Origin: a virus
Taxonomy: Duplodnaviria; Heunggongvirae; Uroviricota; Caudoviricetes
Direction: 5' to 3' (one strand)
Virus record (IMG/VR): IMGVR_UViG_3300042923_000692
Coordinates: 26,709 to 90,708 of that record
Length of the DNA stretch: 64,000 bases
This document shows positions 2,423 through 34,862 of the stretch, one piece after another. The notes beneath the pieces are model-generated. The model saw only the letters and a program-made list of their open reading frames with translations, searched no databases and had not been told where the DNA came from. The position numbers and the translations under genes were made by a program. The number at the start of each line of letters is the position of its first letter. The stretch's first letter is position 1.

Positions 2423-2446
2423 CTATTTATCTCCTAGTAGATATGA

Positions 2447-2665
2447 TTAGAGCTCTTCAGTCTTGCGACGATTCTCTCGAGCCAGAATTTCCTCGTACTC
2501 CTTATTCAGAAGTCGAGCAATCTTGGCAGCAATATTGCGATGACCCGCATCAGGAACCACGATAGTCCAAATGGTTCGCCCATTGCTGCCGAGATTGCTT
2601 TCCATCACCGCGTGCTTGTCCGAGGTACCCGTCCCCAGATTCAATACTTCGTATTTGTCAGCCAT
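2447..2665 (-). CDS. hypothetical protein (72 aa; start MADKYEV)
   Basis: internal ATG at 2665 preceded by GAAGGAGC SD; gives an 8-nt overlap with the upstream gene instead of 68 nt. Confidence 0.45.
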   Translation of the reverse strand: MADKYEVLNLGTGTSDKHAVMESNLGSNGRTIWTIVVPDAGHRNIAAKIARLLNKEYEEILARENRRKTEEL

Positions 2666-11009: not shown

Positions 11010-11430
11010 TTGTCCCCTTTCAAGAGATACCCATAATTGTGACCACAAAAAGATAGGGTATGGGGGCCGCGCCGATAGCCGACGAGACCCCCATATAATC
11101 AGGCGCCCGAGAATGATCCCGGGAACAGTTCCAGCTGTCTGTGACTTCGCCACCTCTGGAAAGGCGCTTATTGGTAACATAGTTACCTGCATATATACCT
11201 GATAGCGCGGTTTTAACTAACTCATCCACAGGGGGGCCTAACCCCCATAAACTTTCGGTGCGGCGCCACACCGCTCACGTACCGGCTGCTGCATGATACA
11301 ACCTGCCATTACCCCAAGTATCACAGGGGCACCGATACCGCACTGGACCTAAGAGCTATTTAAACTCGTCCAGTCGAGTTCCCACATACCGAAGATCTGG
11401 GAGTAGGTCAAACCTTCGGGCTGAAGGATA

Positions 11431-21147: not shown

Positions 21148-21975
21148 TTAGATGAGGTCGAGGATGACTCCATCGACGTTGAAATCGAGCAGAATATAAC
21201 CGTTGCTTGCCTGCTGGTCCTTGATACCGAAGTCGATGTAGTCGTCGCCAGTACCCTTCTCGTAGACCCACCCAGTGACTGCGCCCGCCTTCGTGTCCGG
21301 AAGACCGAGCGCTCGAAGAACGTCATTCAGGAAGACGTGGCCCTTGACCTGAAGGCGATCATTGAAAATGCGCTCGAATCGAGTGACGAAGAACAGGTTG
21401 TCGTTATGACGACCCGACCAGTTGTCATTTTCCGGACCGAAGGAGTGAACGTAGTTACCCTGCGTGTCGTCGCGGGTTACGGACTTGACCTTCTTTCCGT
21501 CCTCTCCGACGATCGTCTCCTCGCGGAGTCCATATCGATACTTCGCGTCTGCCTCCTCGCCGTGCTCCTCCACAACACGCTTACGGTACTCGGCAAAGGC
21601 CTGCTCGAGACCCTTGTACGCACCAATAAGCGCGATATTGCGCTTGTGGAGAATGTTGTGTCCAACGAGAATGGTGACGATCGACGCTGCACCGAGCGTA
21701 ACCGGGATGCTGTAGAGCTTGGCCAGGTTGAAGATATTCTTCGCGACGGCCTTGTTAAGATCCGCCTGAGTGGCGTTCTCGTCACTCTTCACGACGTCAA
21801 GTCGATCGCGTGCCTCATCGAGAGTGCTCTCGAGCTTGAGCGTGTTTCGAGCCGCCAGAACGCCTGCGGTGACGAGACCGGCGATACCCACTGCAGTAAG
21901 AATCTGCGGCGAGTACTTCTGAAGCTGCAGCACGCTCCGGCTGAACGTACGCTGCAGAGCGGGGCTGATATTCAT
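21148..21975 (-). CDS. membrane protein, paralog family A (N-terminal TM, C-terminal FLNDVLRALG...GWV domain)
   Basis: 275 aa; paralogous to 34077..34862 and 33603..34001. Confidence 0.55.
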   Translation of the reverse strand: MNISPALQRTFSRSVLQLQKYSPQILTAVGIAGLVTAGVLAARNTLKLESTLDEARDRLDVVKSDENATQADLNKAVAKNIFNLAKLYSIPVTLGAASIVTILVGHNILHKRNIALIGAYKGLEQAFAEYRKRVVEEHGEEADAKYRYGLREETIVGEDGKKVKSVTRDDTQGNYVHSFGPENDNWSGRHNDNLFFVTRFERIFNDRLQVKGHVFLNDVLRALGLPDTKAGAVTGWVYEKGTGDDYIDFGIKDQQASNGYILLDFNVDGVILDLI

Positions 21976-25203: not shown

Positions 25204-25565
25204 CGGTTTCTCTCCTATTTTGATTGAAAACTCCCCGTATCGTGGGGCCGACGCCGGACTATATGACCCCCGTCGGGGTCTACCGGATAGCGTCATCGCC
25301 CTCTATTAGATCCGTCGGGGGCCTATTCCGAACAAAACGATAGAGTACGATGGATACGTTGTTTAGAGAATGAGACGGGTTCGCCGCACTAGGTTGCCAT
25401 TCATCACGCTATGATACGTGCTTTCAGCCACGGACGCATTACCAAGAGGCAATTCGACCCATCTCATTGGCAGTTTTTGAGGCAGAGTTACCGCTCTCCC
25501 CGAAGTATTAACCTGGTTCCAAACCGTGGGCTAGGCATCATCAGGTAGGGCTTCGGACCCTAATT

Positions 25566-27170
25566 CTATCGAACGAAGTTGGCGATCAGAGCCGGTGCGT
25601 TCGAGTCGAACCCTGCGATATCCAGGGCATTGAGATCGGACGGATCCGCCATCGAGAACTTGTTCGCAGTCACCGCGTTAACGATGATCTTCGCGTTCAC
25701 TCCCGAGACATGACGGTATCGCTCGAGCGCCTGGAACGGGTGGTGGTAACCCAGACCGTTCTCGTTGTCCGTGAAGAGAACGAAGGCGTCGACCTTCATG
25801 TCCTTCTGCAGAGCATCCATCATCGGGAGGGAGAGGTTTGTGCCCCGGAAGGGGAACGCGCCAGTCTCAGTCATCACAGTCTCGAGGGAATCCCGAGCGG
25901 TGATGTTGAGGAACTCCATCCGATCCTGGAAAGCACCGAAGTAGTGCTCACGCTCCGTTCGAGCCACCACCATCGCCATAACCGCGGCGATCTCACGAGG
26001 TGACAGCGGAACCTTGTCGGAAATCCGAGAAGGACCATCCATCGACTGTGAAACATCGATGCCGAGGTAGTGCGCCTTGCCGGTGGGCTCGACCGCAGCG
26101 AAGGAACCGTAGAACGATCCCTCGAGCGCTGCAACGATCCGACCAACGGGAGACCACTGGCTACGCTCGCCATATCCCTGACCGTAAGTACGCATCGCGA
26201 TGAGCGCATTGACGGGGTGGATACGAGCCTTACGAAGCTCGTCCGAGTCGGTGAGTCGATCCTCGATTCGTCCGGTCCAACCACCGAGTTGCGTGATCAG
26301 CCCCAGGTTGGTAAGACGAGGAAGCTGGCGGATGAGCGCCCCAAGAGGCACGTTTCCCTCGAGAAGGGCCTCCCACACGGGGACATCGTTCAACACTTCG
26401 GTCGGAAGCATCTCCCACGAGAGACCATACTCGCGGATGATACGAGGAATATCCCGAGCGTCAGCGGTCTTGGCGATCTCGAAGCCCTGAACGACACGAG
26501 GAAGTTCCTCGATCGCGACAGACTTACCAAGCGCCCAGTCCAGAAGCGGACCAGAGGAGGGACGGTCGCTCGACTTGACGTACTTCGACAGACGAAGCGT
26601 ACGAGAGTGATCGAACCCACCGCGCTGACGGTACTTGACCATCTGGTAGGCAAGCTTGTCGACCGGCTTCTCGTTGTACCAGCGTCCGATCGCCTTCTTG
26701 AGACCCGTTCCGCCCAGGTTCTTGAACTGGGACAGATATCCGAGGAACTCGAAAAGGGTCGAAGCCGTCCGAGCGACTGCCTGGATCGCCTGGAATCCGA
26801 GGTTCTTCACCTTCGGGTCTTCCGTCGAGGCGATCACCAGAGCCAGAGCGAACAGACCAGGAGACTGGCTCGGCGCCCGGCCAGAAACTGAAACCTCTGT
26901 GATGAGGTCGATCAGCTCGATAGCCCGGTCGGACTCGGCGAGCTTCTTGATCGTCTCGGCGTTCTTCATGGCGAGCTTGCCGCCGGCCTGGTAGAACGAG
27001 GACTCCGATCCGAGGATCAGGAATCGCTCGGCACGCTTCATGTCATCGATCTTGAAGACGTATCCGCCCTGGTGGCTCTTGACCTGGTCGGGGGTGGCGC
27101 GGACTGTCGCGGGGGTCGTGTTTCGGTGTGCTGCGTGTCCAAATGACACACCGCGGAGTGAGTTGGGCAT
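25566..27170 (-). CDS. rsr: Ro60 orthologue (Rsr): TROVE domain + C-terminal vWA
   Basis: 534 aa; TROVE-like N-terminal region; MIDAS-type GIDVSQSMDG in the C-terminal vWA; GAAGGAG SD. Confidence 0.75.
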   Translation of the reverse strand: MPNSLRGVSFGHAAHRNTTPATVRATPDQVKSHQGGYVFKIDDMKRAERFLILGSESSFYQAGGKLAMKNAETIKKLAESDRAIELIDLITEVSVSGRAPSQSPGLFALALVIASTEDPKVKNLGFQAIQAVARTASTLFEFLGYLSQFKNLGGTGLKKAIGRWYNEKPVDKLAYQMVKYRQRGGFDHSRTLRLSKYVKSSDRPSSGPLLDWALGKSVAIEELPRVVQGFEIAKTADARDIPRIIREYGLSWEMLPTEVLNDVPVWEALLEGNVPLGALIRQLPRLTNLGLITQLGGWTGRIEDRLTDSDELRKARIHPVNALIAMRTYGQGYGERSQWSPVGRIVAALEGSFYGSFAAVEPTGKAHYLGIDVSQSMDGPSRISDKVPLSPREIAAVMAMVVARTEREHYFGAFQDRMEFLNITARDSLETVMTETGAFPFRGTNLSLPMMDALQKDMKVDAFVLFTDNENGLGYHHPFQALERYRHVSGVNAKIIVNAVTANKFSMADPSDLNALDIAGFDSNAPALIANFVR

Positions 27171-27223
27171 CGGTTTTCTCCTTCGGATCTCTGGGTAGAG
27201 ACGGGTAGCGAGTAGACAGGGGT

Positions 27224-27291
27224 ACGACGGTGCGGGTTTATCCCCAAGCGGGGATATCTTAAGATGGAAGATGACGCATTGTCTTGGATCT
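27224..27291 (-). ncRNA. Y-RNA-like module 8 (hairpin type), directly upstream of rsr
   Basis: bounded by AGATCCAAG and CTGTCT; contains ATCCCC-GCTT-GGGGAT tetraloop hairpin. Confidence 0.4.
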
Positions 27292-27336
27292 ACTCGGGTT
27301 TGGACATCTAGACAGGTTTGTGATATTCGACTTTTT

Positions 27337-27426
27337 AGACAGTTGCTCTGCCGATTGAGCTACACGTCATAGAGACGCGACGGGACTTGAACCCGTAACA
27401 CACGGATAACCGAATATCTTGGATCT
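27337..27426 (-). ncRNA. Y-RNA-like module 7 with permuted tRNA-like domain (YrlA-like)
   Basis: order T-arm ACGGG-TTCAAGT-CCCGT, acceptor 3' strand CGCGTC, loop TCTAT, acceptor 5' strand GACGTG, D-arm GCTC-AATCGGCA-GAGC. Confidence 0.5.
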
Positions 27427-27443
27427 AGATGGACTTGGGATTC

Positions 27444-27561
27444 AGACAGGGAATTGATGATCGATAAGCGTGTTGCCGATTACACTACGAAGCTAATGCT
27501 TCGGTGGGATTCGAACCCACAATACTCTTTCCGCATAAGATAACCGATCAAACTTGGATCT
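27444..27561 (-). ncRNA. Y-RNA-like module 6 with permuted tRNA-like domain
   Basis: T-arm GTGGG-TTCGAAT-CCCAC, then CGAAGC-ATTA-GCTTCG acceptor hairpin, then D-arm GTGT-AATCGGCA-ACAC. Confidence 0.5.
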
Positions 27562-27590
27562 GAATCGTGCTGGAACTACAGTTAAACCCC

Positions 27591-27643
27591 AGACAGGTTT
27601 GCGCGAAAGCGTTATTTTACAGATGACGCTAACGCTTGGATCT
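27591..27643 (-). ncRNA. Y-RNA-like module 5 (hairpin type)
   Basis: AGATCCAAG...CTGTCT boundaries; loop with TCATCT. Confidence 0.35.
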
Positions 27644-27669
27644 GGGATGGTTAAATGGATTAAAGGTTT

Positions 27670-27829
27670 AGACAGGAGTATGAGCATCGAATTTGTTGAG
27701 GTGTGACTACCGGGCACAAGGCAACCGGTCGCTTTAGGCCGCTCAGCCACGAGGGAATCTTAATAAGATACCTCGACGGGATTTGAACCCGCGGTCGCAT
27801 GATTCTAGATAACGATGACTCTTGGATCT
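27670..27829 (-). ncRNA. Y-RNA-like module 4 with permuted type-II-like tRNA domain
   Basis: T-arm CGGG-TTCAAAT-CCCG, acceptor strands CGAGGTA / TCCCTCG closed by a TTATTAA loop, Ser/Leu-like D region GCT-GAGCGGCCTAAA-AGC plus ACCGG...CCGGT arm. Confidence 0.45.
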
Positions 27830-27847
27830 AAACCAAGATTAAAACTC

Positions 27848-27907
27848 AGACAGGGGAATGCAAATGAGGTAATTTTCTCCCTAAGATAACCCTCGTAGCT
27901 TGGATCT
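27848..27907 (-). ncRNA. Y-RNA-like module 3 (hairpin type)
   Basis: boundary motifs; GAGG...CCTC stem with GTTATCT loop. Confidence 0.35.
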
Positions 27908-27926
27908 GAGTTGGATAAGCGGGTTC

Positions 27927-27985
27927 AGACAGGGATTCATGTTAGAGGATTGTCTGCAAGATAGATAACTCTAACACTTGGATCT
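27927..27985 (-). ncRNA. Y-RNA-like module 2 (hairpin type)
   Basis: boundary motifs; TGTTAGAG/CTCTAACA 8-bp stem, loop begins TTATCT. Confidence 0.35.
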
Positions 27986-28004
27986 GAACCGTAAAATAGG
28001 ACGA

Positions 28005-28130
28005 TAGACAGGGTGGTTGACGATTGGGTATAAGCGCTCTGCCGACTGAGCTACACGATGCACGCACCATGACGGGACTCGAACCCGCGACCTCTCCATT
28101 AACAGTGGGTAACCAATCATCTTTGGATCT
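28005..28130 (-). ncRNA. Y-RNA-like module 1 with permuted tRNA-like domain
   Basis: AGATCCAAAG start; T-arm GCGGG-TTCGAGT-CCCGT; acceptor strands ATGGTGC / GCATCGT; D-arm AGCTC-AGTCGGC-AGAGC; 9-bp terminal helix CCAATCGTC/GATGATTGG. Confidence 0.45.
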
Positions 28131-28139
28131 ATCGTTTCG

Positions 28140-28212
28140 CTCCTACACCAGGACTCGAACCTGGAACCAACGCATTAACAGTGCGACGCTCTGCCAATTG
28201 AGCTATGTAGGA
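28140..28212 (-). tRNA. tRNA-Asn (anticodon GTT), canonical order
   Basis: cloverleaf: acceptor TCCTACA/TGTAGGA, D-arm GCTC-AATTGGCA-GAGC, anticodon loop CTGTTAA, T-arm CCAGG-TTCGAGT-CCTGG. Confidence 0.7.
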
Positions 28213-28385
28213 ACGTGGAATGAGCGTCGGGAGCCGACCCCGATATGCGTGCTGCCTTCCATCCCCCGAGGTCCCAAGCTCGGGGGATGGCTGCACAAAA
28301 CTACTCTCACGCGAGGAATGACGTGGAGTTTCCGCCGGTACTCATTCAACGGAGGCTAAAGCCTCGTCCCCCCGAGAGGGAGCTT

Positions 28386-28979
28386 TCAGAACGGGATGTT
28401 CGTGAAGATCGCGCTGTCGTAGTCGAACGACGTGGGCGAGATCTCCAAGGTGATGCTGGACGGATCCGCAACACTGAACGCCGTGTACCACTCGAGCGTC
28501 TGTCCCGGAAGCACCGAAGTGACCGGGAAGAGACCGAGATCGCCATATTCGGCGTTGCCAACATCCGCGATGTACTCAGCCGGCTTGCCACCAGACGTCG
28601 CCGAAGGGACGGCCGTGGGCTCGAGCGGCTCAGTGGAGTTGTTCGTAAGGACGACCTTGAAGACGGTCGGCTGGTAGCCTTCCACGATTCCCTGAGCGTA
28701 CTCCCCGGGGGTGAAAGGGCCGATGAGGGCTACCGAAATGCTGACGCCGTCCTCGTAAGTAACGACATCGCCGAACTGCTTGATGAGGGGGTTGACGGGC
28801 GGGGGCGTCTGCTCCGGCTCCTCAACCTCCTCCGCTGCGGAAGACGCGAAGGGGTCCGGAGACTCCGCGACGGCCTTGGACGCGCATCCCGTGAAGAAGA
28901 GGGCAATCGCAATTGCCATCAGGAATGCGACGATGACCCAGATCACTCGAGAGGTCTGGATACGCTGCGAATTGGTCAT
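28386..28979 (-). CDS. secreted lipoprotein
   Basis: 197 aa; signal peptide with lipobox LFFTGC. Confidence 0.6.
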   Translation of the reverse strand: MTNSQRIQTSRVIWVIVAFLMAIAIALFFTGCASKAVAESPDPFASSAAEEVEEPEQTPPPVNPLIKQFGDVVTYEDGVSISVALIGPFTPGEYAQGIVEGYQPTVFKVVLTNNSTEPLEPTAVPSATSGGKPAEYIADVGNAEYGDLGLFPVTSVLPGQTLEWYTAFSVADPSSITLEISPTSFDYDSAIFTNIPF

Positions 28980-30855: not shown

Positions 30856-30887
30856 CGGTTACTCCCATTTTGATTGAATTGACGCAG

Positions 30888-30956
30888 TACTTACGACGGG
30901 ATTCGAACCCGCATCCTAAGCCAGAGGCTCAGCTCTACCAGTTAAGTTACGTAAGT
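30888..30956 (-). tRNA. tRNA (canonical order; anticodon uncertain, possibly TCT/Arg)
   Basis: acceptor ACTTACG/CGTAAGT, T-arm GCGGG-TTCGAAT-CCCGT; D and anticodon arms irregular. Confidence 0.45.
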
Positions 30957-31262
30957 TACCCCGGAGGGATTGTGTGATTGTACTCCGGATACCCGCTCAG
31001 ACCCATTCGAGGCTCATCTAGAATCGCCGATACGAGGATCAACATGACGTCTACGACTCCCAGGAGTGACCACTGAGCTATTAGCTCGGGTATTTCCCAT
31101 GGTATCGACCAAATCATCATCGTTGTCTTGCGGGTTTTGTTTCTTCTTGGATTGACACCCCATGAAGAGTGCGCACCCAGGGACTTGAACCCTGGATCTC
31201 AGAGGTTAGCTTCACGCTACAATCAGGGATTGTTTGAATGCGTGGAACATGAGACGCCGCCG
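30957..31262 (-). ncRNA. tRNA-like / structured RNA region (second cluster)
   Basis: T-arm CCAGGG-TTCAAGT-CCCTGG at 31177-31195 with palindromic GGTGCGCAC; CCGGAG...CTCCGG hairpin; GAGCTA-A-TAGCTCAGTGG junction; GATCC-type motifs related to the Y-RNA array. Confidence 0.3.
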
Positions 31263-31519: not shown

Positions 31520-32479
31520 TTACTGAGGCGCAGCAGGAAGCTGGCCCAGCGAGTTGAAGTTCTGCGGAACGACGATGGTGTTCGCGTTCGCAAGAGCTTC
31601 GATCTGACGCATTGCGATGATCTCCGGAGTCAGCGAAGCGGCGAGAAGGCGGTTAGCCTCGGCCTCACCGGTCGCTCGCGAGATTGCTGCCTGAGCCTCG
31701 CCATCAGCCTTTGTCTTGGCCGTCTTCGCATCCGTCTCGGCCTTCAGCAGGTCGGTCTCGGCGTTCTGAGCGTCCTTGAAGCGCTGCTGGACATCCTCGG
31801 GGTAACGGATTCCGTGAATGTTGACGTTCTCAACGATGACACCCTTCTTGGCCCAGGCCTTGGTGAGTGCTTCGGTGATCTCGGCACGAAGGCGAGGACG
31901 TTCGGAGAACATCTCGACAGTGGTGAACGAGCCGGCGATATCACGAGGGATCGACTTGACATCGTTCTCGACGACCTTGATCTCGAAGTCGTTCTGATCG
32001 GTGAACCCCTTGGTCAGTGGAACGACCGCGTCGGCCTTGATCGAGAACAGCACCTGGATATCCATAGGAGCCGAGATGCCGTCCTTGTCGATGAAGACGA
32101 TCTCTGCACCAGCGACCTGCTGACCATCGTGCGTGGTGGATCCGTCACCAGTGAACGTCACATCCTGGTTCTTGATATCCCAGGCGATGGTGTCCTGCCA
32201 CGGAGCCTTGGTGTGGAAACCGGTAGTGGTGACAGCATCCTCCTGCACAACACCAGACCAGTCCTTCAGAACCACCGACGAACCCGTCTCCACCGAGAAA
32301 TTCGTCGAGAAGACCGTGAACAGAACGGCGAGCAGACCAAACAGCACGGTCCAGATCCAGGCTCCGATTCGGGCGAATCGACGACCCGCTTCGTACTCGT
32401 CATCCTGCTTTCGCCAAGCCACGATGAGAAGCACACCCACGATTGCGAGAATCGCGAAGATAATTGCCCAAACGAACAT
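31520..32479 (-). CDS. SPFH/Band-7 (stomatin/prohibitin-like) membrane protein
   Basis: 319 aa; two N-terminal TM helices plus Band-7 core. Confidence 0.7.
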   Translation of the reverse strand: MFVWAIIFAILAIVGVLLIVAWRKQDDEYEAGRRFARIGAWIWTVLFGLLAVLFTVFSTNFSVETGSSVVLKDWSGVVQEDAVTTTGFHTKAPWQDTIAWDIKNQDVTFTGDGSTTHDGQQVAGAEIVFIDKDGISAPMDIQVLFSIKADAVVPLTKGFTDQNDFEIKVVENDVKSIPRDIAGSFTTVEMFSERPRLRAEITEALTKAWAKKGVIVENVNIHGIRYPEDVQQRFKDAQNAETDLLKAETDAKTAKTKADGEAQAAISRATGEAEANRLLAASLTPEIIAMRQIEALANANTIVVPQNFNSLGQLPAAPQ

Positions 32480-34076: not shown

Positions 34077-34862
34077 TCACCACGGATCGTTGGCGAAGGT
34101 GACGCTTGGTGGGGTTCGATATCCGATGGTGAGCACCGGCTTCTCGTCATGCGCTGCGCCGCCGATAACAACCTCGAGCGGCTTCTTGTTGTTCCATCCA
34201 ACAACCTCGCCGGCGTCGGAGTGCGGCAGGCCAAGCTTATCGAGGAAGACGTTCAGAGAGATGAATCCGTCATCAAGACAGACTCGATTGGCGTCGTTCT
34301 CGGCTCGATGGATCTTCTCGGCATTACTAACGAAGACCTGCTGAGTGTGGGTCTCGATGACCATCACGTCACCGTCCTTGGCGATGACCAGACGATCGAG
34401 TTCGTCCCGCTTCTCGTTCACCTTATCCTGGGCGATATCGTCCTGGATACGACGCTCCTTGGGCTTGCTGGTGGTCTCAACCATCTTGGACTGGTACTCG
34501 GAGAGAGCACGTTCGGAAATGGCCGCGGCAGAGATGAGTGCGACGTTTCGGTTGGCGCTAATCCGATGGCTGCCGACGACCGCCACACCCGTGACGACAC
34601 CGACCACAACGACGGGAATATAGAACTTCCACGTTTCCTTGAGGACTTCCTTCGGCGTCATGAAGACAGTCTCTTCGCCATCGGGAGTTTCGTCGATGCG
34701 TGCTGCCGCGTCTGCCATCACGACAAGACCGGACTTGAATCCCGCACGAGATGCGAGATATGTTGTAGCGGCGAGGCCGGCCACGCTGACGGATGTGAGG
34801 ATTTCTGGTGCATACTTCTTAAGCCCGATACCGAGCTTATGCATGTTCTCCTGGAGAGTCAT
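34077..34862 (-). CDS. membrane protein, paralog family A
   Basis: 261 aa; same architecture as 21148..21975. Confidence 0.55.
   Translation of the reverse strand: MTLQENMHKLGIGLKKYAPEILTSVSVAGLAATTYLASRAGFKSGLVVMADAAARIDETPDGEETVFMTPKEVLKETWKFYIPVVVVGVVTGVAVVGSHRISANRNVALISAAAISERALSEYQSKMVETTSKPKERRIQDDIAQDKVNEKRDELDRLVIAKDGDVMVIETHTQQVFVSNAEKIHRAENDANRVCLDDGFISLNVFLDKLGLPHSDAGEVVGWNNKKPLEVVIGGAAHDEKPVLTIGYRTPPSVTFANDPW

Follow-up and report, generated by a model that had tools for sequence, protein, structure and literature searches.

An array of eight Y-RNA-like units upstream of a Ro60 gene in a tailed phage: an expanded variant of a known module

Introduction

Why would a phage carry eight small structured RNA units, one after another, in front of a single gene for the Ro60 (Rsr) protein? 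The question is raised by a locus on the minus strand of a 64,000-nucleotide (nt) stretch of a Caudoviricetes genome (positions 26,709 to 90,708 of the IMG/VR record IMGVR_UViG_3300042923_000692; this whole stretch is hereafter called the window, and coordinates without further designation refer to it). An original prediction, made from the letters of the window, had recognised there an rsr gene (25566..27170), eight tandem Y-RNA-like modules directly 5' of it and a tRNA-Asn gene preceding them. The role of bacterial and phage Ro60/Y-RNA particles is largely open, and few Y RNAs have been studied, one or two per organism. YrlA RNAs adjoin Ro60 in 22 phages (Chen et al., 2014, PMC4201824), and in Mycobacterium smegmatis a single precursor, encoded upstream of rsr, gives rise to both YrlA and YrlB, YrlA being cleaved by RNase P and provided with CCA (PMC4201824).

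The analysis presented below leads us to the view that the locus, with its derived Ro box, is an expanded variant, at the large end of the scale, of the Ro60/Y-RNA (YrlA) module already known, and not a categorically new system. It is probably an accessory cassette of an actinobacterial (Microbacterium-type) siphophage, that is, a Ro60 ribonucleoprotein system with an unusually large RNA repertoire, acting by the mechanism proposed in the Discussion.

Results

The Ro60 protein

The 534-aa product of the minus-strand open reading frame (ORF) 25566..27170 is a bona fide full-length Ro60/Rsr. [quoted passage not shown] Both domains and the MIDAS motif had been named in the original prediction and are borne out. 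From end to end the protein is collinear with the solved orthologs, namely human RO60 (9nen, 5.5e-89, residues 28-533), Xenopus Ro60 (1yvp, 1.1e-88) and Rsr of Deinococcus radiodurans (2nvo, 5.1e-77). The Joint Genome Institute (JGI) gene call (P0001) for this protein, in which a residue of the motif KYRQRGGFDHSRTLRLSK was noted, begins 43 codons later and gives 491 aa. The 534-aa form is preceded by a good Shine-Dalgarno sequence, GAAGGAG, at a spacing of 7 nt, and its N-terminus MPNxxLxGV is conserved in relatives, a point in favour of an rsr start at the ATG at 27170.

Layout of the array

Read 5' to 3' on the minus strand, the locus consists of a GC-rich hairpin (28290..28259), tRNA-Asn(GTT) (28212..28139), eight units (28135..27209), a 38-nt leader and the 534-aa ORF (27170..25566). 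All eight units, found both by motifs and by a covariance model in agreement with the predicted number, strand and tandem order, lie within 1 kb 5' of rsr and on its strand. The motif AGATCCAAG has exactly 7 copies in the 64 kb, all on the minus strand (27283..27985), and one copy with a single mismatch, AGATCCAAA, at 28122..28130; 8 of the 10 CCTGTCT sites of the whole window fall in the array (27214..28012, minus strand). As RNA, the 5' and 3' boxes of the units read AGAUCCAAG and CCUGUCU. A second box (GTTATCT, GTCATCT, GTTACCC or GTTATCC) stands 6-8 nt past the first, not within ~5 nt as first described.

The 5 nt outside each motif pair are complementary in 8/8 units, with eight different sequences, so the true units are longer than motif-to-motif: 63-170 nt, with spacers of 7-19 nt. 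Every unit thereby gains 5 nt at either side; the array extends over 27209..28135, in place of 27224..28130, and the earlier spacer range of 17-45 nt no longer holds. The spacers are rich in pyrimidine and AU, as would be expected for single-stranded endonuclease sites. A supposed fused CTGTCT junction, which had suggested that the boundary motifs were once contiguous, proved to be a misparse of the 3' end of the seventh unit, M7: its CCTGTCT at 27316..27310 is followed by AGAUG, the 3' strand of the closing stem, which pairs with CAUCU at 27431..27427, and M7 ends at 27305, not near 27336.

Secondary structure and covariation

Each unit begins with a closing stem of 9 bp, of which 5 are variable and the others formed by AGAU/GUCU. 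There follow, in order, an asymmetric internal loop (CCAAG on the 5' side, 6-9 nt ending in CC(U) on the 3' side), a 7-9-bp second stem, the second box (G(U/C)UAUC or GUYAUC in RNA) and a variable apical part. With paired 5' and 3' ends and a conserved internal loop, the units have the general Y-RNA architecture, and precedent suggests that they would be bound by Ro60.

Four units are of a short type: M2 (27922..27990, minus strand, 69 nt; closing stem GGUUC.../...GAACC, 9-bp stem 2, apical hairpin UCU-AUCUUGC-AGA), M3 (27843..27912, minus strand, 70 nt; AACUC.../...GAGUU), M5 (27586..27648, minus strand, 63 nt; AUCCC.../...GGGGU) and M8 (27209..27296, minus strand, 88 nt; CGAGU.../...ACUCG), the last with two apical hairpins. 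Related units were gathered from metagenomic and cultured phages whose Ro60 is 44-73% identical to that of the window. The closing-stem flanks were compared over 47 units of 7 phages: 4.8/5 positions pair when the strands are cognate, against 2.2/5 when they are not. When the hand-drawn structure was laid over 22 short units, 86.4% of cells were paired, against 32-42% with a slid partner; there were 107 double-sided changes, distributed over 14 of the 18 pairs, and none of 500 shuffles matched the observed score. Independently, RNAalifold recovers 17/18 pairs. A pairing of the GGUUAYC box with a GAUUAC-like 3' partner was also considered and found no support, the box being left unpaired in the RNAalifold consensus.

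The covariance model R1, trained on short units only, finds exactly 8 units over the whole 64-kb window (E 1e-14 to 1e-4), the next best match having E=0.46. M2, M3, M5 and M8 score 62.5, 54.9, 54.5 and 55.2 bits, respectively, and the four long units, all of them outside the training set, 25-47 bits.

tRNA-like anatomy of the long units

The long units M1, M4, M6 and M7 contain a T arm, a capped acceptor-like stem of 6-7 bp (5+5 bp in M4), U8-A9 and a D arm, in the order known from YrlA, while M2, M3, M5 and M8 lack the YrlA tRNA-like module and are YrlB-like at most. In M1 (28001..28135, minus strand, 135 nt; closing stem ACGAU-AGAU/GUCU-AUCGU, box AGAUCCAAA), the loop of the hairpin CCA-CUGUUAA-UGG has exactly the sequence of the anticodon loop in the adjoining tRNA-Asn; besides this hairpin, the unit has an AGGUC variable loop, the T arm, an acceptor-like stem of 7 bp with a CGUG cap, U8-A9 and the D arm. 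In M4 (27665..27834, minus strand, 170 nt), the T arm and the extended acceptor-like stem are joined by an extra hairpin, and the D arm (GUGGCUGAGCGGCCUAAAGCG) is of the class-II type. The hairpin UCUU-AUGCGGA-AAGA, the T arm, a 6-bp acceptor-like stem and the D arm are present in M6 (27439..27566, minus strand, 128 nt); M7 (27305..27431, minus strand, 127 nt) likewise has the T arm, a 6-bp acceptor-like stem and the D arm, and is without an anticodon-like hairpin. About half of the clade's long units have, in the stem-loop that lies 5' of the T arm, a loop of 7 nt whose second position is U and whose sixth is a purine, and an AGGUC-type variable loop comes next; by its sequence, this stem-loop looks like an anticodon arm. 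The anticodon-like triplets are GUU, GCG and CUU in the window and CUU, GCA, GGG, UUC, CAU and UCU in relatives.

R1 gives 25.5 bits (E 1e-4), 32.3, 47 and 43.3 bits for M1, M4, M6 and M7, and the second-generation covariance model R2 gives 35.4 bits for M1 and 36 bits for M4. At the gathering threshold, Rfam places no Y-RNA family over the locus; a permissive scan alone matches YrlA (RF02553, gathering score 69 bits), with 45.4 bits for M7 (E 1.3e-8, full model length), 34.5 bits for M1 (E 1.7e-5) and 31.7 bits for M6 (E 1.2e-4), M4 being unmatched. For a search of 1.2 kb, E-values of 1e-8 to 1e-4 nevertheless count as significant. Thus, of the earlier description of the modules as Y-RNA-like, the paired-end stem with its internal loop, the strong covariation and four YrlA-type bodies stand, with Rfam scores that stay below threshold.

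In the cultured Microbacterium phage Magritte (L001, OR553905.1), the GenBank feature tRNA-Arg(tct) at 2437..2513 (gene 117), also called as a tRNA by ARAGORN, lies inside a YrlA-like unit (2441..2572) and comprises the 5' stem strand of the Y unit, its anticodon-like hairpin and its T arm. It is a probable misannotation of a Y unit.

Ro60 loci of other phages and bacteria

Ro60 relatives were found in 451 IMG/VR contigs, and the R2 survey covered ~150 viral and cellular Ro60 loci, across which the units are linked to Ro60. In 686 kb of viral Ro60 loci there are 269 matches, 269/269 of them on the Ro60 strand and clustered beside the gene. They lie mostly upstream of Ro60 and, in L053, L062/L064, L068, L083, L104 and L109 (L numbers denote surveyed loci), downstream of it, with up to 6 in L062, so the position of the array relative to rsr is not fixed. 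Some 70 distinct distant viral loci have 0-6 units each (median near 3), and 80 cellular loci, mostly actinobacterial, 1-5; among cultured phages, Magritte has 6, FuzzBuster 3 and Forza 4. Multi-unit arrays are thus the norm next to Ro60 in viral and actinobacterial genomes. The closest relatives of the window with its 8 units are L034 (9), L036 (8), L037 (at least 8, at a contig end) and L038 (5), and within the survey counts of 8-9 are confined to this clade. The Y arrays of L038 and L039 are immediate continuations, on one strand, of runs of 14-19 tRNA genes.

Besides same-strand matches, pairs of Y-like matches on the opposite strand were observed 1.5-3 kb upstream of rsr in L163, L167 and L175 (Promicromonospora and an Actinomycetota metagenome-assembled genome); these are the only opposite-strand matches among 428. 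A search of IMG/VR with the exact pattern AGATCCAAGN7GTYATCT returned 23 single-match loci, about the chance expectation, none of them with an array.

The boundary motifs are conserved in related phages, a point on which the original prediction had made itself refutable, and show lineage-specific drift. Individually, M1, M4, M6, M7 and M8 are closer, by a clear margin, to a counterpart in another phage than to any sibling in the window; for M2, M3 and M5 the margin over siblings is small. M4 reaches 0.74 with its best counterpart (L034:2081-2234) and at most 0.52 with siblings, M8 0.68 and 0.42, respectively; M6 reaches 0.77 (best counterpart L034:1943-2072) and M7 0.75 with their counterparts. 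The order of the units varies among phages. Unit-by-unit conservation together with differing order argues for distinct roles of the units over simple dosage.

The rsr leader and the 3' flank

Between M8 and rsr, at 27178..27205 (minus strand), there is an element CCC-GUCUCU-ACCC-AGAGAU-CCGAAGGAG, a permuted version of the Ro-box helix (3' box, short loop, 5' box), which runs into the Shine-Dalgarno sequence, the ATG following 7 nt later. The hairpin is predicted in the window and in five relatives, L034, L036, L037, L038 (GAGGCCCAA...) and Magritte (GGGGAGGCUGAAC...), in each case with the boxes of its own lineage; the leaders of L030 and L032 have the same layout with AUGUUCG / CGAGCCGGAA boxes, which brings the layout to 8 lineages overall. 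In FuzzBuster the Shine-Dalgarno sequence lies within the closing stem of the last unit. Our hypothesis, drawn from this comparison of phages, is that the leader element may be a Ro60 operator, a candidate for translational feedback on rsr.

The 3' flank of rsr (25470..25562, minus strand), delimited by alignment with L034 (4118..4215), consists of a hairpin, UAGGG-UCCGAAG-CCCUA (25546..25562), and a conserved non-coding element of ~75 nt (25470..25544). The hairpin, immediately 3' of the rsr stop, shows covariation when the window is compared with L034 (AGGG/CCCU and ACCC/GGGU). The ~75-nt element reads UGAUGAUGCCnAGCCCAyGGUUyGGAACCA...AACUCUGnCUCAAAAACUGC, has no Rfam match at E<=1 and may stand outside the Ro60/Y system.

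Genomic setting and other features of the window

The window belongs to a tailed phage, as it encodes a terminase, a portal, a protease/capsid, a tape measure, a DNA polymerase/primase and a helicase. Its source is a 95.6-kb contig of the JGI metagenome 3300042934. The terminase shares 86.6% identity with that of Microbacterium phage Count; when the locus was compared by megablast with 50,697 phage records, there was a tRNA-sized match only, with no close sequenced relative among them. Count has homologs of both flanking genes, and its syntenic site is occupied by a glycosyltransferase gene and small ORFs, lacks Ro60 and gives zero matches with R2. As Count keeps the flanking genes without the Ro60 cassette, the latter is an accessory, mosaic module. 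The array (27200..28200) forms an AT-rich island with 45-47% GC, against ~58-61% in the genome and ~60% in the flanks.

The tRNA-Asn(GTT) gene (28139..28212, minus strand; ARAGORN, Rfam tRNA 67.8 bits) is canonical, as predicted, is without encoded CCA and ends 3 nt before M1. Between it and the upstream ORF, which ends at 28386, the sequence can be read as a GC-rich 12-bp hairpin (CCAUCCCCCGAG-CUUGGGAC-CUCGGGGGAUGG; 28259..28290, minus strand). The hairpin lacks a U tract and went uncalled in the terminator scan; a possible role is that of a terminator or a processing hairpin marking the 5' limit of the cassette.

Several observations were made elsewhere in the window. A full-length match to the Pistol self-cleaving ribozyme lies at 11312..11379 (minus strand; 42.7 bits against an Rfam gathering score of 34.5, E 1.8e-4). 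The anticodon arm is truncated in a tRNA-Arg(tct) that both ARAGORN and Rfam (46.7 bits) call: it can be drawn with 5 bp and a loop of 3 nt, or else with 3 bp and the loop CCUCUGG, which lacks U33. At ~250 nt upstream of this tRNA there is a second tRNA-like fragment with a T arm, called by no tool (sites 30887..30956 and 31170..31240, minus strand). The motif ACAAUCCCU precedes both of them, and as AACAATCCCTCCGGGGTAACT it precedes a tRNA in L034. Two paralogous DUF6353 proteins (E ~1e-69 each), encoded 12 kb apart at 21148..21975 and 34077..34862 (minus strand), flank the region of the Ro60 cassette, and an SPFH/Band-7 protein is encoded at 31520..32479 (minus strand).

Discussion

We suppose that the cassette would work as follows. 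The tRNA-Asn, the eight Y RNAs and rsr, standing head to tail on one strand, most likely form a single transcript, which would probably be cut by host enzymes: RNase P and RNase Z at the tRNA, endo- and exonucleases in the 7-19-nt AU-rich spacers. The closing stem of each unit would present a helix with an asymmetric internal loop (5' AGAU-CCAAG / 3' CC(U)-GUCU), the counterpart of the known Ro60 site, and the phage Ro60 would dock there. The variable apical part would act as an effector module, which is a permuted tRNA body, sometimes with an anticodon-like hairpin, in M1, M4, M6 and M7 and one or two small hairpins in M2, M3, M5 and M8. By analogy with the systems of D. radiodurans, Salmonella and a Thermus phage, these modules would link Ro60 with partners in the host, PNPase or tRNA-recognising enzymes being candidates, and redirect RNA decay, repair or surveillance during infection. 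Finally, free Ro60 would repress its own translation via the permuted Ro box at the rsr ribosome-binding site, so that the output of Ro60 would be matched to the Y-RNA pool.

A number of observations weigh against this reading. No unit attains the RF02553 gathering score (at best 45.4 bits in the window and at most 47.7 in relatives, against 69). The scan of 25.2-28.7 kb for sigma-70 promoters and intrinsic terminators gave nothing usable. The leader hairpin is short, and its fold is not thermodynamically distinctive (z = -1.1). The unit counts at distant loci are lower bounds, since the model is biased towards the clade of the window, and the extreme position of eight units is therefore provisional.

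To the same side belong the Ro box and one residue of the protein. The published bacterial Ro-binding motif is GNCGAAN0-1G in the 5' strand of the Ro60-binding stem (PMC4201824). The Ro box of the window, AUCCAAG, occurring as (A)GAUCCAAG in 7 units and as GAUCCAAA in one, does not conform to it; the box is GGCCCAAG / AGGCCCAAG in the closest relatives, GGCCGAAG / AGGCCGAAG in L027/L039 and AGGCUGAAG in Magritte. Among 150 units, taken from 65 distant viral loci, most have the box G[GA]GCCG[AG]A, and GAUCCAA is found in 0/150. The change from AGGC to AGAU still permits pairing with the unchanged 3' GUCU, G·U becoming A-U and C-G becoming U·G. Judged by these sequences, the Ro box of the window is derived relative to the published motif. 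In appearance the GAUCC-AAG of the window resembles the metazoan GGUCCGAAG strand, that of hY1.

As for the protein, the residue equivalent to H187 is K (LRLSK) in the window, and K also in L034, L036, L037 and L038, the four relatives with a CCAAG box; H187S was reported to abolish Y-RNA binding (PMC11277228). A histidine at this position is not a defining feature of the family, but bears on the binding mode, and, with K here and a derived Ro box, binding by the known mode is not to be assumed. The equivalent residue is H in 28/28 loci with CG[AG]A boxes and R in Magritte, and when it is compared with the fourth base of the box, H goes with G in 28/28 loci and K with C in 5/5. The link between residue and base is suggestive only, because the five K-C loci belong to one clade and K also occurs with a CGAA box (L120) and a UGAA box (L046).

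Three other explanations of the array were weighed. The best of them, in our opinion an improbable one, regards the array as one long cis-acting structured 5' leader of the rsr mRNA, serving, for example, for stabilisation or for titration of Ro60 in cis, rather than as a source of separate stable RNAs. M8 is indeed only 38 nt from the ATG, no internal promoter or terminator was found in the scan, a copy of the Ro box lies at the Shine-Dalgarno sequence, and in FuzzBuster that sequence is even inside the closing stem of the last unit. However, in L053, L062, L068, L083, L104 and L109 the units are located downstream of the gene; most units are kept as distinct species across phages with their order shuffled, the tRNA at the 5' end must be excised anyway, and in M. 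smegmatis such a precursor yields YrlA and YrlB in the form of stable RNAs (PMC4201824).

Still less credible, and very unlikely on the whole, is the view that a phage tRNA array ends here in permuted or split tRNA genes, or in tRNA pseudogenes undergoing decay, and that these make up the long units, either functional as tRNAs or junk, their link to Ro60 being incidental. Their T and D arms, the 7-bp acceptor stem, the AGGUC variable loop and the 7-nt anticodon-like loops would agree with it, as would the arrays that follow real tRNA arrays in L038 and L039 and the unit of Magritte that ARAGORN and GenBank call tRNA-Arg(tct). However, half of the units, although without a T or D arm, have the closing stem, boxes and stem 2 in common with the others; the anticodon-like stems measure only 3-4 bp and are absent from M4 and M7; the acceptor stem is capped by a loop, and the tRNA body is interrupted by ~50 nt of the conserved Y stem. 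Moreover, units are found only beside Ro60, with 269/269 matches on its strand, and covariation and conservation across phages speak against decay. Lastly, the idea that the repeats act as DNA (iterons, an operator array or a replication/partition site read through AGATCCAAG and CCTGTCT), which the strictly conserved 7-9-nt motifs at regular intervals in an AT-rich island might bring to mind, can practically be dismissed, as the variable positions, both those between the motifs and those beyond them, covary in the manner of RNA helices, with G-U pairs among them that mean nothing in duplex DNA, all copies are on one strand, and the AGAU <-> AGGC change in the 5' box keeps pairing with the constant 3' box.

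Returning to the Ro60 ribonucleoprotein cassette, a bolder version of it is possible, if doubtful: the array might be a repertoire of Ro60-docked tRNA surrogates, each offering a different tRNA-like body or anticodon-like loop to a different host tRNA-directed enzyme, with Ro60 feedback-controlled via the Y-stem mimic. In this case the units could be decoys or sensors for tRNA-cleaving defence nucleases, or adaptors taking Ro60/PNPase to damaged tRNAs, and such cassettes would be a counter-defence or RNA-surveillance hub evolving unit by unit, as sets of tRNAs do.

The original prediction had called the arrangement undescribed. The scale is indeed unusual, but phage YrlA beside Ro60 and a two-RNA precursor have already been published, and arrays of 2-6 units are the norm in our survey. 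No description of arrays of more than 2-4 Y RNAs was found in the literature covered, outside which lay the per-phage YrlA tables of Chen et al. (2014) and the 2019 and 2020 reviews of the Wolin laboratory; nor, within the same scope, were 8-9 units, unit-by-unit conservation, anticodon-like hairpins, a widespread GGUUAYC box or a candidate leader operator found described. What remains unusual is the eight units (8-9 in the closest relatives; provisional as to the count), the derived Ro box and the conservation of most units as distinct species.

The locus and its relatives show that a phage can hold 8-9 distinct Y RNAs in a single cassette, compact and probably polycistronic. Such arrays are missed by current tools, as Rfam YrlA scores stay under threshold and one unit is annotated as a tRNA in GenBank. 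Y units may inflate the "tRNA" counts of Ro60-encoding actinophages, and what pass for intergenic "gaps" upstream of Ro-like genes are RNA genes. The cassette is a compact natural system in which the binding partners of the variable modules can be sought; the study of RNA-protein co-evolution may be possible with the derived Ro box and the changed Ro60 residue, and the leader element offers a simple autoregulation hypothesis.

Comparison with known systems

A functional phenotype for a phage Ro60 was found in the literature searched only for the Ro60-like gp130 of Bas63, which counters the Ppl defence system (PhageMaP preprint, PMC11482910). There, too, a Ro60-like gene stands beside a run of "tRNA" genes, some of which were suspected by the authors to be Y RNAs; Bas63, however, is a coliphage, the likeness of its protein is structural and not sequence-based, and no Y RNAs were defined (PMC11482910). 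With the Rsr-Yrn1-PNPase complex of D. radiodurans (RYPER) and the metazoan Ro60-Y ribonucleoproteins, the window shares a Ro60 ring with vWA/MIDAS and modular Y RNAs composed of a conserved Ro60 stem and a variable partner module; those systems have 2-4 dispersed or loosely clustered Y genes, in contrast to the tight array of the window, whose Ro60 has K at the H187 equivalent.

Ro60 of Thermus phage phiLo binds Yrl1 and Yrl2, encoded upstream, and assembles with the host PNPase (PMC12135203). This system resembles the window in having a phage Ro60 with Y-like RNAs immediately upstream, and differs in that two RNAs were found there, by a CGAA motif, with no tRNA-like domain described and in a host of an unrelated phylum (PMC12135203), while the window has 8 units, 4 of them tRNA-like. 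The tRNA arrays of actinobacteriophages are similar in another respect: they, too, consist of small RNA genes placed head to tail on one strand with short spacers, and in L038 and L039 the Y array continues a tRNA run. Processing of the Y array probably uses the same enzymes. Unlike those tRNAs, the units of the window are not decoders: their acceptor is capped, the body is permuted inside the Y stem, and half of them have no tRNA features.

YrlA and YrlB of Salmonella Typhimurium and M. smegmatis (RF02553; PMC4201824) likewise adjoin rsr on the same strand and form the Ro60-binding stem from their 5' and 3' ends. YrlA imitates a tRNA by its T arm, acceptor-like stem-loop and D arm; cleavage by RNase P goes together with a 7-bp acceptor-like stem in M. 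smegmatis (PMC4201824), and M1, which shares such a stem, may be cleaved by analogy. The differences are in number (two units there, eight in the window), in the Ro box (GNCGAAN0-1G there, AUCCAAG in the window) and in the RF02553 score, which in all units of the window is under the gathering score. The GGUUAYC box after stem 2 in the window was not found in the passages of PMC4201824 cited here. In addition, the stem-loop 5' of the T arm, the "V" of that paper, often has a 7-nt anticodon-like loop in the units described here, and the rsr leader of the window carries a permuted Ro box.

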